From: a virus
Taxonomy: Duplodnaviria > Caudoviricetes
Virus record (IMG/VR): IMGVR_UViG_3300013131_004046
Location: 1 to 59,794 of that record
Reading direction: 5' to 3' (one strand)
DNA: 59,794 nt
Under the pieces are notes generated by a model, which ran no database searches, was not told the origin of the DNA, and saw nothing but the letters and a program-made list of their open reading frames with translations. The position numbers were made by a program, and so were the translations under genes. Of the stretch, positions 43,186 through 58,823 are shown piece by piece (within the stretch, counting starts at the first letter, position 1; each line of letters opens with the position of its first letter).

Positions 43186-45363
43186 ATGTCATATCAAAAT
43201 ATAAATCAATACGTTTATCAAAAATATAGATTAAATCTCATCTATGATGGACAAGATATGTCGTTAGCATCAGATGAAAAAGATTTTAATGAAGAAGTGG
43301 TTTTTTCCCCTTATTTGATTGCACAAACTTATGGAAAAAAATTACCAATAAGTTTTGACACCAATAATGACAATTCTGCACAAAATATACCTTTATATTA
43401 TAAAGAGTATAACTATAACAATATTGTTGTGTCAGAAAATTTTTATGAAATTGACAAACCATGCTTTAGTGCTGATTCTGTTTGTGACATTGGGTTAACA
43501 TCGATTGATAATGGATTGGTCAATCAAATGACAGGAGAAACTATTTTTTTTACAAACGGTTTATTTGCTGATTCGGTAAAATTTAATAGGTTGTATTATG
43601 ATAGAAGATTAAAATTATTTCAAGTTACTGGGTACACTTTACAAAATCATGTTTTTTCAGGAAGACCAAACAATACTTTATATGAAATGGTCTCAAAGGA
43701 AAATCCTTTGTTTGGCCGATACGTTGAGCTTTATGGTGGTTTTTATCAAGGATTTTACAAGTTGTTTGGGTATGACTACGAAATATTACCTGAGAGGATG
43801 AATAAAGGTTGGTCGGTAGAAATGATAATCAAACCAAGATTGGTGAATGAATTTTTACCAAACTCTGAAGAAACTACTTTGAACTCTATTTACCCAAACA
43901 ACAAAAATACCTTTTTCTATTTTGGTTCGAGAGCTGAAAATAAATTTTATCACCATGCTGACGGATCTCCAAAATGTTTAACAGGATACACAAGAGTTAC
44001 AACTCCTTTAGCAAATTGCGTCCAAACATGTGCTTGTTGTGATTACAACATAACAAATAGTAGATGTGTTTATGTTTACCCACCGAGATCGAAAAATAAT
44101 CAACATGACTCACATGTTGATTATGGTTGTAATATTTGTAACGGTAGTAAAGATATAAATTTAACTTGTGGATGTAGTTGTGGTCAAGAACCTTGCAAAA
44201 CTTGTGGTTGGGAATGCCAATATCATACTTGTGCATCAATTATATACCCAACTCCAACTCCAACACCCACACCGACCCCAACTCCAAATTGCGAACATCC
44301 AAAACCAACATGTACTCCTTCTTGTACAAAATGTAACGAATGTAATGATTGTTATCCTGCATGTACTCCAACAGGATTCACATCAATAGAGGATACCTGT
44401 GAGAAAGACCCTAAGATGGACATTTTATCTAATAACATTTCGTTTAGATTATGCGGAGACCCAAAAAATCCAAGTATTGGTGTAAGAGTTTTAAAAATTA
44501 CCGGGTCTTGTGAAACAACTGGTACTTGTCCAACTGGATTGACTTTTGTGACAGGTTATACAATACAGGACATTTGTACCGATCCAATATACCCAAGATG
44601 TGAAATAGAATGTCCTGAGTGGTTAGATTTGGAGCATTGGATACAATTAGATTTTGTATGGGAACGATATACTTATTTTGACTTATGTGATTTATTTTAT
44701 TTTGGAGGTTTGGGGGATATAACAAAAGTAGAGTATTTAGATTCCTTGGCAAATAGTGCTGTAAATTTAATAGAACCCCCAATTACAACTGGAAAAGAAA
44801 TTGCAAAAACTGTTGAGATAGTTAAATTAAACGATAGGTGGTTAGAAGATGAAAAATATAGAAGAGGTAGATTAAAAATTTATGTTAATGGAAAAATATT
44901 TTATGTAATAAATGATTTTGAAGAGGTAATACCAAGAGCTTTAAATACCGATAAAGAAAAACAAATTGGGGTCCCTTTCAATATTTCGTGGGGTGGAGGA
45001 ACACAGGGACTACATGAAAATTTAACATTTTCGTCTTGTACAGGATTAACTTCCAATTACATACAAGATCCAGAATGTTTCCCAAATAATATATTAAGCG
45101 GGACCTCATTTTCTGCATTAACAACAAACATACTTTTAGAAAAATATTTTGCAGGAACTTTTGAAGGTGGAATAAGTCAATTCAGAATGTATGTTGAGCC
45201 ATTGTCTTCTGACGAAGTGAAACATAATTTTAAAATTTTAAAAAATAAATTTAGATTATTCGATCCAGATTGTCCAAATTGCGATCCAAAAGAATGTCTA
45301 CCAAATGATCTTACATATGTCATTAACAATTCGGTCACAACAACAACAACAATTTTATTATGA
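43186..45363 (+). CDS. Putative virion structural protein: LamG/ConA-like beta-sandwich interrupted by a Cys-rich and PT-repeat insert
   Basis: [30 protein letters not shown] (LamG-like); more than 30 Cys; (PT)n. Confidence 0.65.
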
Positions 45364-45794
45364 GTTTAAGTGTTACAATAGAAAGTTTAAATTATGATGG
45401 AGAAGAAGCCCAAGTTCTTTTTAAACCAGATAATAGTAATGATGTTATTAATTTGGGAAATGTAATTTTACCTTTTATTTTTTATCCGAGTTTATTGATA
45501 CCACCAAGAGAAATTTATGGTTCATATACTGTTGTAGTAGATTCCACAAATTGCAGACCAAACTGCGTTAATATGTTAAATATACCAAGACCCACCCCAA
45601 CACCAACTCCGAATGTTACTCCAACAAAAACCACAACACCAACTCTGACCCCAACAATCACACCAACACCATCTATCGATCCTTGTAAAATACCCAGTCC
45701 TACCCCAACATCGACATTAACTCCGACACCTACACCAACCAAAACCACAACTCCAACACCAACACCAAGTTGGAATCCGTGTATTACACTATAA
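45360..45794 (+). CDS. Pro/Thr-repeat (mucin-like) protein
   Basis: Two (PT)n tracts. Confidence 0.75.
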
Positions 45795-45906
45795 TTTTTT
45801 GAGTTAGAGATTGAGTTTAAATTCAGATAGTTCGAAATCCATAATAATTAGATGATTTTTTCTAAATATTTTTTATTATTCTATAAAAAAACAAAACTAT
45901 CTATTG

Positions 45907-55839: not shown

Positions 55840-57479
55840 GTTTAACTTTAGTTACTGGTTTATGGGACATTGGTCGAGAAAATTTAAAAGAAGGTTGGTC
55901 AAGATCATTCAATCATTACTTAGAAAAATTTGACCAATTACTTCAAGTTGATTGTAACATGATAATTTTTGGTGATGAAAACTTAAGTAAGTATGTTTTT
56001 GAGAGACGTAACGAATCAAACACCCAATTTATTTTAAGGGATTTAACTTGGTTCAAAGAAAACGAATTTTATGATAAAATACAACAAATAAGAAAAGATC
56101 CTAAATGGTATAACCTTTCTGGTTGGTTGAAGGATTCCACTCAAGCAACCTTGGAGATGTATAATCCTTTAGTGATGTCAAAAATGTTTCTACTTCATGA
56201 CGCTAAAATATTAGACAAATTTAATTCAGAAAAAATTTTTTGGATAGATGCTGGAATCACTAACACTGTACATCCTGGATATTTTACTCATGACAAAATA
56301 TTAGATAAAATAAATTCTTTCTACAATAAATTTTTATTTGTGTGTTTTCCTTATGATGCTGAAACTGAAATACATGGATTCGATTACCCAAAACTTAATG
56401 GTTATGCAAAAACTATTGTTAAAATGGTCGCTAGAGGTGGTTTTTTTGGTGGGGCCAAAGAAACAATATCAACGGTAAATTCTTTATATTATGATTTAAT
56501 GTCAAATACATTAAAAAATGGTTTGATGGGAACCGAAGAAAGTTTGTTTTCAATATTATTGTATAAACACCCGTCTCTATTTGATATTGAGATGATAGAA
56601 CAAAACGGTTTAATGTATAAATTTTTTGAAGATTTAAAAAATAAAAAAAAGAAAGAGGTAAATCATTCAGAAGGAGTTGGTTTATATGTAATAACATATA
56701 ATAGCCCAAACCAATTTGAGACCTTGATTAAAAGTATATTAGAGTATGATAGTAGTTTGATCACCTCAACAAGAAAATATTTATTAAACAATTCCACAGA
56801 TCACACAACTACTCAAAAATATTTAGAATTGTGTGACAAATATGGGTTCGAACACATCAAAAAAGATAATATAGGAATTATGGGGGGTCGAATATTTGTT
56901 GCAGAACATTTTGATCAAACTGATTTAGGTTACTATTACTTTTTTGAGGACGATATGTTTTTTGTAGGTAAAAAAGACGAAGATATTTGTAGAAGCGGGT
57001 TTAAAAGGACCGTTCAAAATTTGAACAACAAATTACAATCTTTAATAAAAAAAGAAAAATTTGATTTTATTAAATTAAACTTCACTGAATTTTATGGTAC
57101 ACACGAGAAACAATGGGCTTGGTATAACGTTCCTCAAAGTTTTAGAGAATCTCATTGGCCAAACAATAAAAATTTACCACATGATGGCATTGACCCGAAC
57201 TCCCCAAATTTGAAATTTGAAAATATAAAAATCCACATGGGACTTCCGTATGCATCGGGAGAGATATACCTTTCAAATTGGCCAATATTGATGTCTAAAG
57301 AGGGTAATTACAAATGTTACTTAAAAACAAAATTTGCCCACCCTTTTGAGCAAACATTAATGAGTCAATGTTATCAAGAAACGATAAAGGGACACATAAG
57401 ACCTGCAGTATTATTAATTTCACCAACCGAACACAACAGATTTGATTTTTATCCTGATCAAGATAGAAAAGAATGTTAA
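55836..57479 (+). CDS. HtrL/YibB-like glycosyltransferase fused to a GT-A domain (start MSLTLVT)
   Basis: TLVTGLWDIGR, YNPLVMSK, FWIDAG, GGFFGG, GTEE; second domain ITYNSP, FFEDD. Confidence 0.75.
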   Translation: MSLTLVTGLWDIGRENLKEGWSRSFNHYLEKFDQLLQVDCNMIIFGDENLSKYVFERRNESNTQFILRDLTWFKENEFYDKIQQIRKDPKWYNLSGWLKDSTQATLEMYNPLVMSKMFLLHDAKILDKFNSEKIFWIDAGITNTVHPGYFTHDKILDKINSFYNKFLFVCFPYDAETEIHGFDYPKLNGYAKTIVKMVARGGFFGGAKETISTVNSLYYDLMSNTLKNGLMGTEESLFSILLYKHPSLFDIEMIEQNGLMYKFFEDLKNKKKKEVNHSEGVGLYVITYNSPNQFETLIKSILEYDSSLITSTRKYLLNNSTDHTTTQKYLELCDKYGFEHIKKDNIGIMGGRIFVAEHFDQTDLGYYYFFEDDMFFVGKKDEDICRSGFKRTVQNLNNKLQSLIKKEKFDFIKLNFTEFYGTHEKQWAWYNVPQSFRESHWPNNKNLPHDGIDPNSPNLKFENIKIHMGLPYASGEIYLSNWPILMSKEGNYKCYLKTKFAHPFEQTLMSQCYQETIKGHIRPAVLLISPTEHNRFDFYPDQDRKEC

Positions 57480-57506
57480 TTGTAATATTTATTTTAAAAA
57501 CAGTTA

Positions 57507-58823
57507 ATGGAATTTTTTATTAAGAAGAATGCCACTTTGCCTCTTTTAAAAATGCAAGTTGTAAAAGACGGAAGAAGTGACTACAACAACATGATGGAAT
57601 TCATCGAAGAATCTGCGGTGTTCTTTTCGATGGTGAATGTAGATAATGGCATTCCAAAAATAACCACAAGACCAGCGGGGTTTGTAGAAAAAATTCAATT
57701 GGACCCAAATGCCAGCCCTGAATATTATGTTTACTATCAATTTAAACCACAAGACACAAATAAAGTAGGTAAGTATGAAGGACAATTTCTTTTTAGAAAT
57801 GAACAAGGTACTTTAGTTTTACCAATAAGAGATAAATTATTTATAAACGTACAGGAAAGTTTTATTGCGGATGACTTACCATATGAAAGTTGTTATGTAA
57901 TTGATTTTCCATGTTGTGTTGCTCCTCCACCGATACCGCCACCAGTTACTACAACCACAACCTTATCACCGCCATTACCTGTTGTTGATTTAAGTTTATT
58001 GGTCGATATTAATCTTGGATCTATAATAGTTAATTATTTTCTTTTTGCGTCTGAACCATTATTTGAGGACTATGATGTTTCTTTTGATACAACAATGTTC
58101 ACTTATACAGGTAGTCCAATATTTTTTAGTACGGGTATAACAATAAATGCGGGTACTATTAGTGGTGTTACAGAAGTAAATATTGACTCTGATTTTAATA
58201 ACCTAACAAGAGAATTTGAATTTTCTAATTTTACAGTAACAACAACTGGAATTACTTTTGACTTTAACATAACAACAGAAGTAATAATACCAACACCAAC
58301 ACCTACCCCTTCAGTCACGCCAACAATGACTCCTACTGTGACTCCTACTGTGACACCTACTGTGACACCTACAAATACTCAAACACCAACACCAACGGTA
58401 ACACCTACAAATACTCAAACACCAACACCATCTATTTCTCAAACACCAACACCGACCCCAACTCATACACCAACCCCAACTCCTACACCAGCGTCAGAAA
58501 TTACCCTAAGCGTTGATGCAAATGTAAAACCAGGGTCTGCAATATGTGATTTTAACATTACTTCAAATTATTCTGTTGGGTATAACTACAGTTTACCTGT
58601 AATGGTAATTGCAAACCTTATATCGGGAGGAACAACTTCTTTCGATGGTAATTTGACAATCTTGGCAGGGGAACTTACAGGATTTACACAAATAGTCAAA
58701 GAAGATATAAATTACAATGATCTTTCTTTAGAAGGTGAATTGTTTGTTGGAATGGTTGAACCTCCAATTGGGGAGTATGTAGTTTTGGGTAATGTTTCTT
58801 TTGACCCCTACCCATCACCATAA
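57507..58823 (+). CDS. Putative structural protein (BppU-N-like Ig domain + Pro/Thr tracts)
   Basis: [11 protein letters not shown]...Y.F...DT...[15 protein letters not shown] and a long (PT)n tract. Confidence 0.7.

Follow-up and report, generated by a model that had tools for sequence, protein, structure and literature searches.

The viral record IMGVR_UViG_3300013131_004046 of IMG/VR was analyzed over its whole length of 59,794 b (hereafter the window), and we describe here a 15.6-kb region of it (positions 43186–58823) in which genes for repeat-rich proteins lie among glycosyltransferase (GT) genes. The window has a G+C content of about 30% and an estimated completeness of 18%. Because it encodes a large terminase, a portal protein, a head protease and a major head protein, we take it, from these gene families, to be part of a jumbo phage genome some 300 kb long; its genes recur in near-complete relatives of 274–322 kb. 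A check of open reading frames (ORFs) recovered all ten genes that a preliminary description of this DNA had named as parts of a candidate virion O-glycosylation system. Their alternation, as that description put it, is loose: repeat and GT genes are mixed, in the order repeat, repeat, GT, other, repeat, repeat, GT, GT, GT, GT, repeat. The five GT calls held, those at 45904, 53047 and 55827 by hidden Markov model (HMM) matches, that at 54300 by paralogy and that at 55126 by a GT-A fold with a DxD motif. Four of the five Pro/Thr-rich frames of the window, and its sole collagen-like frame, fall within the region. None of the ten GT-like window proteins has a transmembrane-grade hydrophobic stretch. 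A scan of positions 42900–59400 for promoters and terminators returned fewer sites than were found in shuffled sequences and was uninformative.

The gene at 45904–48768 (plus strand), which starts with TTG and has an ATG at 45907, encodes a 954-aa fusion recognized by Pfam, NCBIfam and alignment to TibC. It consists of a GT4 domain (about aa 1–380), a BAHT (bacterial autotransporter heptosyltransferase) domain, the TibC/Aah type of protein O-heptosyltransferase (aa 388–727; 47065–48084), and an FkbM methyltransferase domain (about aa 770–900), this C-terminal domain matching TIGR01444 (NCBIfam). The BAHT domain scores 281.9 bits (aa 388–726) against TIGR04414, for which the curated cut-off is 200 and the NCBIfam title is ‘autotransporter strand-loop-strand O-heptosyltransferase’, and it aligns with TibC (PDB 4rap) at E 3e-60, covering TibC residues 43–387. 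TibC is reported to use D110 as its catalytic residue (the D110A mutant is inactive), to bind Fe through C339, C342, C358 and C370, which are required for activity, and to possess a beta-hairpin thumb with the hydrophobic tip residues F265 and V266 (PMC4358343). In the phage enzyme, D456 aligns with D110 (LGDTLAW opposite LGDLLGW), C681, C684, C698 and C710 align column for column with the four iron-finger cysteines, and the sequence alignment places GNGYM (604–608) opposite the GQGFV of the TibC thumb, with Y-M for F-V. Every sequence criterion of the enzyme that was tested agrees, and we consider the BAHT domain to be genuine on these grounds. Other phage BAHTs are fused to GT2 or class-I methyltransferase domains besides GT4 and FkbM; bacterial relatives are only 31–38% identical. 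Pfam and PHROG scans found no autotransporter, the defining acceptor of the family, in the window, and the neighbor of the enzyme is a collagen-like fiber.

This 928-aa fiber protein, our proposed BAHT acceptor, is encoded on the minus strand at 49337–52123 and matches PF01391 (E 1e-77) as well as tail-fiber PHROGs. An 88-aa N-terminal anchor precedes the repeat (aa 89–643; 50195–51859), which is followed by a C-terminal globular part. The protein contains 189 Gly-X-Y triplets, of which the 185 in this repeat are unbroken, of the type G-[T/S]-[S/D/N]: X is T in 132 triplets and S in 53, and Y is S in 156 and D in 27. The triplets contain no proline, and S and T together make up 0.90 of the X/Y positions. 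This long unbroken periodicity agrees with membership in the family of collagen triple-helix repeat proteins, in which Pro/Hyp or charged pairs act as stabilizing residues. Local G+C rises to 0.48 at the repeat, against about 0.30, from its GGN, ACN and TCN codons, and two frames that overlie the gene, 50167–51654 (minus strand, 495 aa) and 50190–51875 (plus strand, 561 aa), are by-products of the repeat rather than genes. The same N-terminal anchor is common to 12 non-collagen fibers at the same locus in the clade, none of which is accompanied by a long BAHT, which indicates that enzyme and collagen shaft come and go together.

Between the two genes lies the last gene of the fiber operon (48769–49368, minus strand), an ORF that was missing from the preliminary gene list. 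Its 199-aa product is rich in Cys and Gly and internally duplicated. The gene shares 32 b with the 3′ end of the collagen gene, and its stop codon abuts that of the convergent BAHT gene. No family match was obtained in Pfam, PHROG or NCBIfam, and the sole homolog occupies the same position in locus L008. We ask whether its product is a tip or an assembly factor of the fiber.

We compared gene neighborhoods in three samples: the best 80 loci of 174 phage relatives of the BAHT, which form 28 clusters at 80% identity; 80 loci of the GT60-type gene at 53047, out of 216 relatives in viral contigs (63–78% identity); and, as a control, 80 TerL loci of the same clade. An ORF with 20 or more Gly-X-Y triplets was counted as collagen-like. 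Four contigs, G001 (373 kb), G003 (271 kb), G006 (322 kb) and G007 (291 kb), were fetched whole. The evidence throughout comes from sequence families, predicted folds and gene neighborhoods, on metagenomic contigs that are partly fragmentary. A collagen-like ORF was present in the available flanks of 14 of the 28 BAHT clusters, within 1 kb in 8 of them, and in 1 of the 80 TerL loci. By architecture, it occurred near 14 of 23 multidomain clusters versus none of five clusters of stand-alone (382 aa) BAHTs, and near 10 of the 12 multidomain clusters whose flanks extend at least 8 kb on either side. The density of collagen-like ORFs was 3.72 per 100 kb around BAHT, 0.40 around GT60 and 0.08 around TerL. 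Co-occurrence of GTs and repeat proteins across phages had been put forward in the preliminary description as a check, and it came out clearly for this pair and more weakly for the Pro/Thr-rich proteins (below).

Where a collagen gene lies within 1 kb of BAHT, the two are convergent or co-directional. The nearest collagens were proline-free in 13 of 14 cases, with S+T at 0.66–0.99 of X/Y; in the L042 lineage, the nearer collagen contains Pro and a second, larger one is of the Ser/Thr type. On the whole contigs, three of them near-complete genomes with BAHT, the only collagen gene of G007 lies 33 b from BAHT, the only two of G003 lie 4.5 and 7.1 kb upstream of it, and G001 has its main one at 5 kb and two small ones at about 30 kb, counted across the contig ends. 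The fourth contig, G006, has neither BAHT nor a collagen gene. By our own arithmetic, which assumes uniform placement, the chance of such proximity is about 2e-4 for G007, 0.03 for G003 and 0.03 for G001. In the cultured Microcystis phage Mel-JY01, too, a GT4-...-BAHT fusion is encoded 1.7 kb from a G-[TS]-S collagen-like frame that lacks annotation. That frame (L163, 2–3052, plus strand) has 1016 aa and 162 G-[TS]-S triplets where GenBank lists minus-strand hypothetical genes; the gene is probably mis-annotated and spans the record start. Several ‘negative’ BAHT contigs end less than 500 b from BAHT, and contigs G007 (1–9372 and 289938–290887), L009, L010, L035, L038 and L075 end in or beside a collagen-like gene. 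Short-read assemblies break in collagen repeats, which biases the co-occurrence counts downward, and the true collagen-positive fraction may therefore be higher.

In a tree of BAHT domains, the deepest split has collagen-positive lineages on either side, every multidomain clade includes some, and the stand-alone forms make up one clade (support 100/99). The collagen label is weakly clustered on this tree, with 36 of 500 shuffles as low. Since collagen-positive lineages span the deepest split, the linkage looks old and retained rather than re-invented many times. It persists even where the orientation or the fusion partner (GT4, GT2, class-I methyltransferase, FkbM) has changed. Locus L082, which belongs to a close relative in the clade of the window (same contig as L272; TerL 82% identical), carries a collinear block of 43186, 45360, 52133 and GT60 homologs without BAHT and without collagen, so that the two genes behave as one indel. 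Among loci of bacterial BAHT relatives, 1 of 55 had a collagen gene, and this single positive, on a 64-kb contig of 33% G+C binned as Bacteroides, is probably a phage. In our literature searches, no paper coupled a phage BAHT to collagen-like proteins.

A second set of GT genes lies on the plus strand downstream of the fiber operon. The gene at 53047–54294 encodes a GT60-type protein, proposed here as an initiating polypeptide GlcNAc-transferase, which scores 253 bits against PF11397 (cut-off 21; E 7.8e-75) and matches phrog_24687 (E 4e-167). The Aah/TibC and GT60 family assignments made earlier are thus upheld, with TIGR04414 and PF11397 both above their cut-offs. D92-S-H94 of this protein is kept in 80 of 80 phage homologs and in ORF334 of phage XacN1, and we take the D-x-H (DSH) motif to be the metal site of related GT27/GT60 enzymes. 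The gene at 54300–55136 encodes a 278-aa HtrL/YibB-like putative GT, called by paralogy, since it matches aa 6–252 of the 55827 protein (BLASTP 4e-6), and by its XacN1 homolog ORF332 in the same order. The gene at 55126–55839 encodes a 237-aa GT of GT-A fold, GT6/GT8-like, whose XacN1 homolog is ORF331. Both belong to a variable cassette, and neither product has an HMM match. The 55126 protein has 271 homologs, none with a Pfam family, in which D98-x-D100 is invariant; its model (predicted local distance difference test, pLDDT, 92.4) retrieved alpha-1,3-GalT, ABO GTA/GTB and LARGE1 from the PDB with Foldseek (E 3e-7, TMq 0.5–0.63). A relationship of this protein to the phage GT8 of locus L121 was considered and set aside: BLASTP shows no similarity and the Atlas lead to GT8 is unconfirmed. 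Finally, the gene at 55827–57479 encodes a 550-aa protein, the conserved GT60 partner, whose HtrL_YibB-like N-half (aa 5–254) scores 63.7 bits against PF09612 (Pfam cut-off 24.1) and 71.7 against the NCBIfam equivalog, below its cut-off of 264.9; for the C-half there is an unconfirmed Atlas lead to GT2 only. Sequence searches of the PDB with the 53047 and 55827 proteins gave no meaningful match.

A homolog of 55827 was found within 10 kb of GT60 in 80 of 80 loci. The interval between the two, resolved in 78 loci, holds 0–10 genes, all on the same strand, and its 188 ORFs fall into 121 clusters at 70% identity. Of these dereplicated proteins, 53 have a Pfam family (E 1e-4 or better) and 68 have none; all 53 are GTs, methyl-, sulfo- or carbamoyltransferases or sugar-nucleotide enzymes. 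The GT families are GT25, GT10, GT_PLOD, GT34, GT2, GT7C and RXYLT1, the methyltransferases are CmcI, FkbM, TylF and generic ones, and a UDP-galactopyranose mutase and a HAD-nucleotidyltransferase also occur. No flippase, polymerase, ligase, oligosaccharyltransferase or lipid-carrier machinery is present among the 53. Such a composition is that of an O-antigen-like variable glycan island bounded by two conserved genes: the GT60-like gene and the HtrL-like gene 55827 are core genes of a jumbo-phage clade that flank a hypervariable cassette. In XacN1 the order is GT60, a carbamoyltransferase, and the homologs of 54300, 55126 and 55827 (the last being ORF330, E 2.6e-145). Our literature search returned no description of a variable cassette flanked by GT60 and HtrL genes; the available text of the ‘moraphage’ paper lists only four core GT orthogroups. 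Upstream of GT60 in some relatives, as in L121 (2697–7415), an operon comprises a GT8 gene, a short (about 302 aa) BAHT with LGD motif and four Cys intact and an unknown gene, and continues with a sulfotransferase, an APS kinase, an NMNAT-like nucleotidyltransferase, DUF2061 and then Pro/Thr-linker proteins. It may supply the activated-sulfate donor for sulfated glycans.

Candidate acceptors for the GT60-type enzyme are the Pro/Thr-rich proteins of the region. One of them is the 438-aa fiber-like product of 57507–58823 (plus strand), the last gene of the GT operon, whose successive junctions are gaps or overlaps of 5, -11, -13 and 27 b. From composition and fold-library searches, it has a BppU-N-like immunoglobulin (Ig) anchor (aa 1 to about 125), Pro/Thr linkers (aa 135–337) and a distal domain (model pLDDT 78.8). 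Named BFVD matches of the N-domain are mostly BppU, minor tail, baseplate, tail fiber and tailspike proteins; Foldseek against the PDB gave generic Ig-like matches only (E about 1e-3). This N-domain occurs in 74 of the 80 GT60 loci, and the C-terminal part of its homologs ranges from 0 to more than 3500 aa, variation typical of an anchored, exchangeable fiber. The 284-aa protein at 52133–52987 (minus strand), first gene of the operon that includes the collagen gene, is by composition an N-domain, a Pro/Thr linker (aa 66–181) and a C-domain, with N-domain homologs in 60 of 80 GT60 loci. The 144-aa protein at 45360–45794 (plus strand) has a roughly 70-aa N-domain, with homologs in 41 of 80, and a Pro/Thr-rich tail (aa 73–144). 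A common N-domain of 45360 and 52133 was rejected, as BLASTP matches the Pro/Thr stretch only. The first gene of the conserved block (43186–45363, plus strand) encodes a 725-aa Cys-rich protein (37 Cys), a candidate structural protein with no Pfam, PHROG or NCBIfam match; homologs occupy the same position in 26 of 80 GT60 loci and in G006 and G007. Among the five Ser/Thr-repeat proteins of the preliminary description, 49337, 45360, 52133 and 57507 are strong cases and 43186 is marginal, with one (TP)7 run only (aa 346–381). The Pro/Thr-linker protein ORF325 of XacN1 (3313 aa) is encoded after the baseplate wedge genes and at a distance of four genes from the GT block. To judge from the 57507 N-domain, the collagen N-anchor and ORF325, the candidate acceptors appear to be structural proteins. 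Outside the region, the sole Pro/Thr/Ser-rich frame (7789–9111, plus strand, 440 aa) lies beside the head genes and is Pro/Ser/Ala-rich from about aa 148; a comparable frame occurs in 32 of the 80 TerL control loci.

A possible source of the sugar donor is a 151-aa cytidylyl/adenylyl-transferase-like protein at 38781–39236 (minus strand), whose best NCBIfam match, below the cut-off, is rfaE domain II. It is 30.5% identical to an rfaE-II-like gene beside a stand-alone BAHT in L064, and homologs occur in 18 of the 80 BAHT loci; rfaE domain II is a heptose-1-P adenylyltransferase (NCBIfam). Directly downstream of BAHT, the stand-alone lineages have rfaE-II-like and rfaE-I-like genes (best matches, below the curated cut-offs), which ties phage BAHTs to ADP-heptose. 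In L064 (7722–12157), and also in L060 and L040, the order is a Ser/Thr-rich protein of 2300–2444 aa, a 720-aa GT4, BAHT, and the rfaE-II-like and rfaE-I-like kinase genes; this GT4 is 43% identical to the N-part of the window enzyme, and the rfaE genes are a split HldE-like pair beside a protein heptosyltransferase. In L121, a nucleotidyltransferase related to the 38781 type sits with the APS kinase and sulfotransferase, and the 38781-type enzyme could serve another pathway.

From the families, catalytic motifs, gene order, conservation and co-occurrence observed, we infer acceptors, sugars, sites and a benefit of the glycan as follows. On balance, we judge it probable that the region is a phage-encoded cytoplasmic O-glycosylation island with two modules, within the hypervariable fiber locus of a jumbo phage. 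In the first module, the three-domain enzyme would hyper-glycosylate Ser/Thr of the proline-free G-T-S fiber (49337–52123) before or during assembly: BAHT would add heptose, probably from ADP-heptose, GT4 would add a second sugar, and FkbM would O-methylate it. In the second module, O-glycans would be initiated by the GT60-type enzyme, probably as GlcNAc taken from UDP-GlcNAc, at Thr/Ser residues in the Pro/Thr linkers of 57507, 52133, 45360 and perhaps 43186, and then lengthened by the HtrL-like and GT-A enzymes. Such glycans may serve in shielding, stability or adhesion of the virion fibers. We favor stepwise glycosylation in the cytoplasm before assembly because the enzymes lack membrane stretches, the annotated cassette proteins include no lipid-carrier machinery and both conserved families act directly on polypeptides. 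The enzyme–substrate link of the preliminary description has strong comparative support for BAHT and collagen; for GT60 and the Pro/Thr linkers, support is moderate, and this link is the weaker of the two as far as sequence comparison tells. Its expectation of glycans ‘elongated and methylated’ fits three results, namely the presence of GT4 and FkbM domains in the fusion, the enzymes of HtrL-like and GT-A type, and the GT, methyl-, sulfo- and carbamoyltransferase cassettes of relatives. Collectively, our comparisons suggest that this phage and many relatives sugar-coat their own fibers.

Several observations weigh against this proposal. The window is a metagenomic fragment, 18% complete, whose gene functions are read from sequence. 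Fiber genes and accessory GTs both gather in hypervariable regions, so that proximity alone is confounded. Known BAHT acceptors are beta-helical autotransporters and not collagen repeats. Two of the 12 fully covered multidomain BAHT lineages, L028 and L072, have no collagen gene nearby, and 13 of 18 BAHT-bearing GT60 loci have a short (about 302 aa) BAHT and no collagen gene. On the donor side, the best NCBIfam match of the 38781 protein, rfaE domain II, reaches 70 bits, below the curated cut-off of 181.5, and the window has no heptose kinase homolog. For GT60, Pro/Thr-rich frames number 6.65 per 100 kb nearby versus 2.75 near TerL, a 2.4-fold difference, and G006 and G007 have further Pro/Thr-rich clusters 60–90 kb from GT60. 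The 80 GT60 loci are one clade with conserved synteny and hence few independent observations, and Pro/Thr linkers are common flexible spacers that need no modification.

An alternative is that the GTs remodel the host surface (lipopolysaccharide, LPS, core or O-chain, or capsule), for example to block superinfection, and that the fiber genes are mere neighbors. GT and rfaE genes that lie in the tail-fiber hypervariable regions of aquatic myophages are usually interpreted in this way (PMC7029224; PMC12801897). The cassette families GT25, GT9, GT8 and HtrL/YibB (waa cluster) are of LPS type in bacteria, and rfaE-like genes lie nearby. This alternative would leave unexplained why the multidomain BAHT is linked to collagen fibers and not to other fibers with the same anchor. 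Both conserved enzymes come from families with polypeptide acceptors only: to our knowledge, every characterized BAHT or GT60 member acts on polypeptides. Moreover, the window GTs are without membrane segments, and no lipid-carrier GT, flippase, polymerase or ligase is found among the 53 annotated cassette proteins. Together with the glycoproteins reported in XacN1 virions (PMC5852040), these points make remodeling of the host surface unlikely in our view.

The enzymes could also act on other targets, such as capsid, tail tube or host proteins, the repeat proteins being plain flexible fibers. The glycans of mycobacteriophages are attached to the C-termini of capsid and tail-tube subunits (as cited in PMC12619734), and the two XacN1 glycoproteins are not named in the available text (PMC5852040). 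Pro/Thr-rich proteins also occur far from GT60, one of them by the head genes (7789–9111), and short and stand-alone BAHTs lack a collagen partner; the possibility of other targets stands especially for GT60. It has to contend with a BAHT–collagen linkage that is kept over deep divergence, rearrangement and a joint indel between close relatives, and with the place of 57507 as last gene of a tight GT operon. There are precedents for a GT beside its acceptor gene, namely sgtA-bclA3 (PMC7157674) and TibC with its ‘partner autotransporter’ (PMC4358343), and we regard other targets as an improbable account of the region. That the GTs place glycans on phage DNA, as a hypermodification against restriction, is a very remote prospect: phage GTs that decorate DNA with diverse glycans exist (cited in PMC12619734), and dUTPase and nucleotide enzymes lie nearby, but no nucleic-acid acceptors are recognized for BAHT or GT60, no base-hydroxymethylating enzyme appears among the PHROG and Pfam matches of the window, and the sulfo-, carbamoyl- and fucosyltransferases of the cassettes are typical of surface glycans.

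The proposed island resembles several known systems in part. Like TibC/Aah with TibA/AIDA-I, the first module has a member of the same curated-HMM family, with catalytic Asp and four Fe-binding Cys kept and a candidate thumb in the alignment, and the arrangement is similar to theirs, in which a soluble cytoplasmic enzyme hyper-glycosylates Ser of a long repetitive surface protein encoded alongside. TibC forms a dodecameric ring and transfers heptose from ADP-heptose to Ser. The window enzyme differs in that its neighbor is a collagen-like G-T-S fiber, not a beta-helical autotransporter, and in being phage-borne and fused to GT4 and FkbM. In SgtA-BclA3 of Clostridioides difficile, Thr in collagen-like triplets is O-glycosylated by an adjacent dedicated GT, sgtA lying immediately upstream, and the result is a surface layer of glycosylated, hair-like structure, as with BclA-type exosporium collagen-like glycoproteins (PMC7157674). 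Beta-GlcNAc is placed on GPT triplets by SgtA, a TPR-repeat enzyme of the GT-A class, whereas the window has a GT-B BAHT, proline-free triplets and a phage fiber as carrier. The GT60 alpha-GlcNAc-transferases of Dictyostelium and Trypanosoma cruzi have PF11397 membership and the conserved DSH in common with the 53047 protein, and GT60 enzymes are described as starting O-glycans on Thr/Ser-rich mucin-like stretches (PMC8724618; PMC3769586). The known ones are eukaryotic and work in the Golgi or cytoplasm, and sequence searches reveal no solved structure related to the phage enzyme.

Among phages, XacN1 (ORF330–334) has the GT60-, 54300-, 55126- and 55827-like genes in the same order and a Pro/Thr-linker giant near its baseplate genes; it differs in the inserted carbamoyltransferase, in a GT9 gene in place of BAHT and in the absence of a collagen partner from the stretch examined. 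Its virions contain at least two glycoproteins, which the authors suggest are made by the phage GTs ORF328 and ORF334 (PMC5852040). In mycobacteriophages (Freeman et al. 2023), phage GTs attach to virion proteins glycans that shield the particle (as cited in PMC12619734); there, the acceptors are capsid and tail-tube C-termini, the hosts are Actinobacteria and the GT families are others. According to the same source, two GTs are involved, whereas the islands described here comprise as many as a dozen or so enzymes. Virion glycosylation by phage GTs is thus already in print, as known in mycobacteriophages and as proposed for XacN1 in 2018 (PMC5852040), and the label of an undescribed system, for which the region was at first put forward as a candidate, is too strong. 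The hypervariable regions of pelagimyophages and cyanomyophages similarly mix GT, rfaE-like and fiber genes (PMC7029224; PMC12801897). In the available text of these papers, such genes are read as modifiers of host O-chain or DNA, and no enzyme–acceptor pairing with fibers is proposed.

A wider reading, which we put forward tentatively as possible rather than probable, is that many large aquatic phages have a serotype-like hypervariable coat of fiber O-glycans, started with heptose or GlcNAc and made wholly in the cytoplasm. The glycans would then be fucosylated, methylated, sulfated or carbamoylated by phage enzymes. BAHT and glyco-collagen would be an ancient co-inherited cassette, sugars would replace stabilization by proline and hydroxyproline, and the ‘LPS genes’ of tail-fiber regions would be fiber-glycosylation genes. 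Glycosylated Thr as a collagen stabilizer is an idea that we offer as such. If the fibers are glycosylated as proposed, a large phage branch exists among protein O-heptosyltransferases, which have so far been linked to bacterial adhesins, and its acceptors, collagen-like repeats, are of a new class; phage fibers are then glycoproteins whose glycans, in the manner of O-antigens, differ from one close relative to the next. The ‘auxiliary LPS genes’ of aquatic phages would have to be read differently, with consequences for how hosts are recognized, for the stability of the particle and for grazing or immune recognition of phages. The pairs would also provide simple enzyme–substrate combinations for defined glycosylated collagen-like materials.

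Upstream of the region, four further GT-like genes were identified by PHROG, Pfam and NCBIfam matches on the minus strand: a GT2-like gene (31074–31877), a double GT2 (35265–36779), a GT2 (36776–37471) and a phrog_7162 GT (39239–40453), near dUTPase, exonuclease and PhoH genes. The block has the same order next to the 43186 homolog in G006 and G007, and may belong to the same glycosylation program. Elsewhere in the window, 2458–4485 (minus strand) encodes a Lon-like ATP-dependent protease of the phage (phrog_4871, E 2e-235). The major head protein of 624 aa (19795–21669, plus strand) has its PHROG match only at aa 373–601 and carries a long N-terminal extension.

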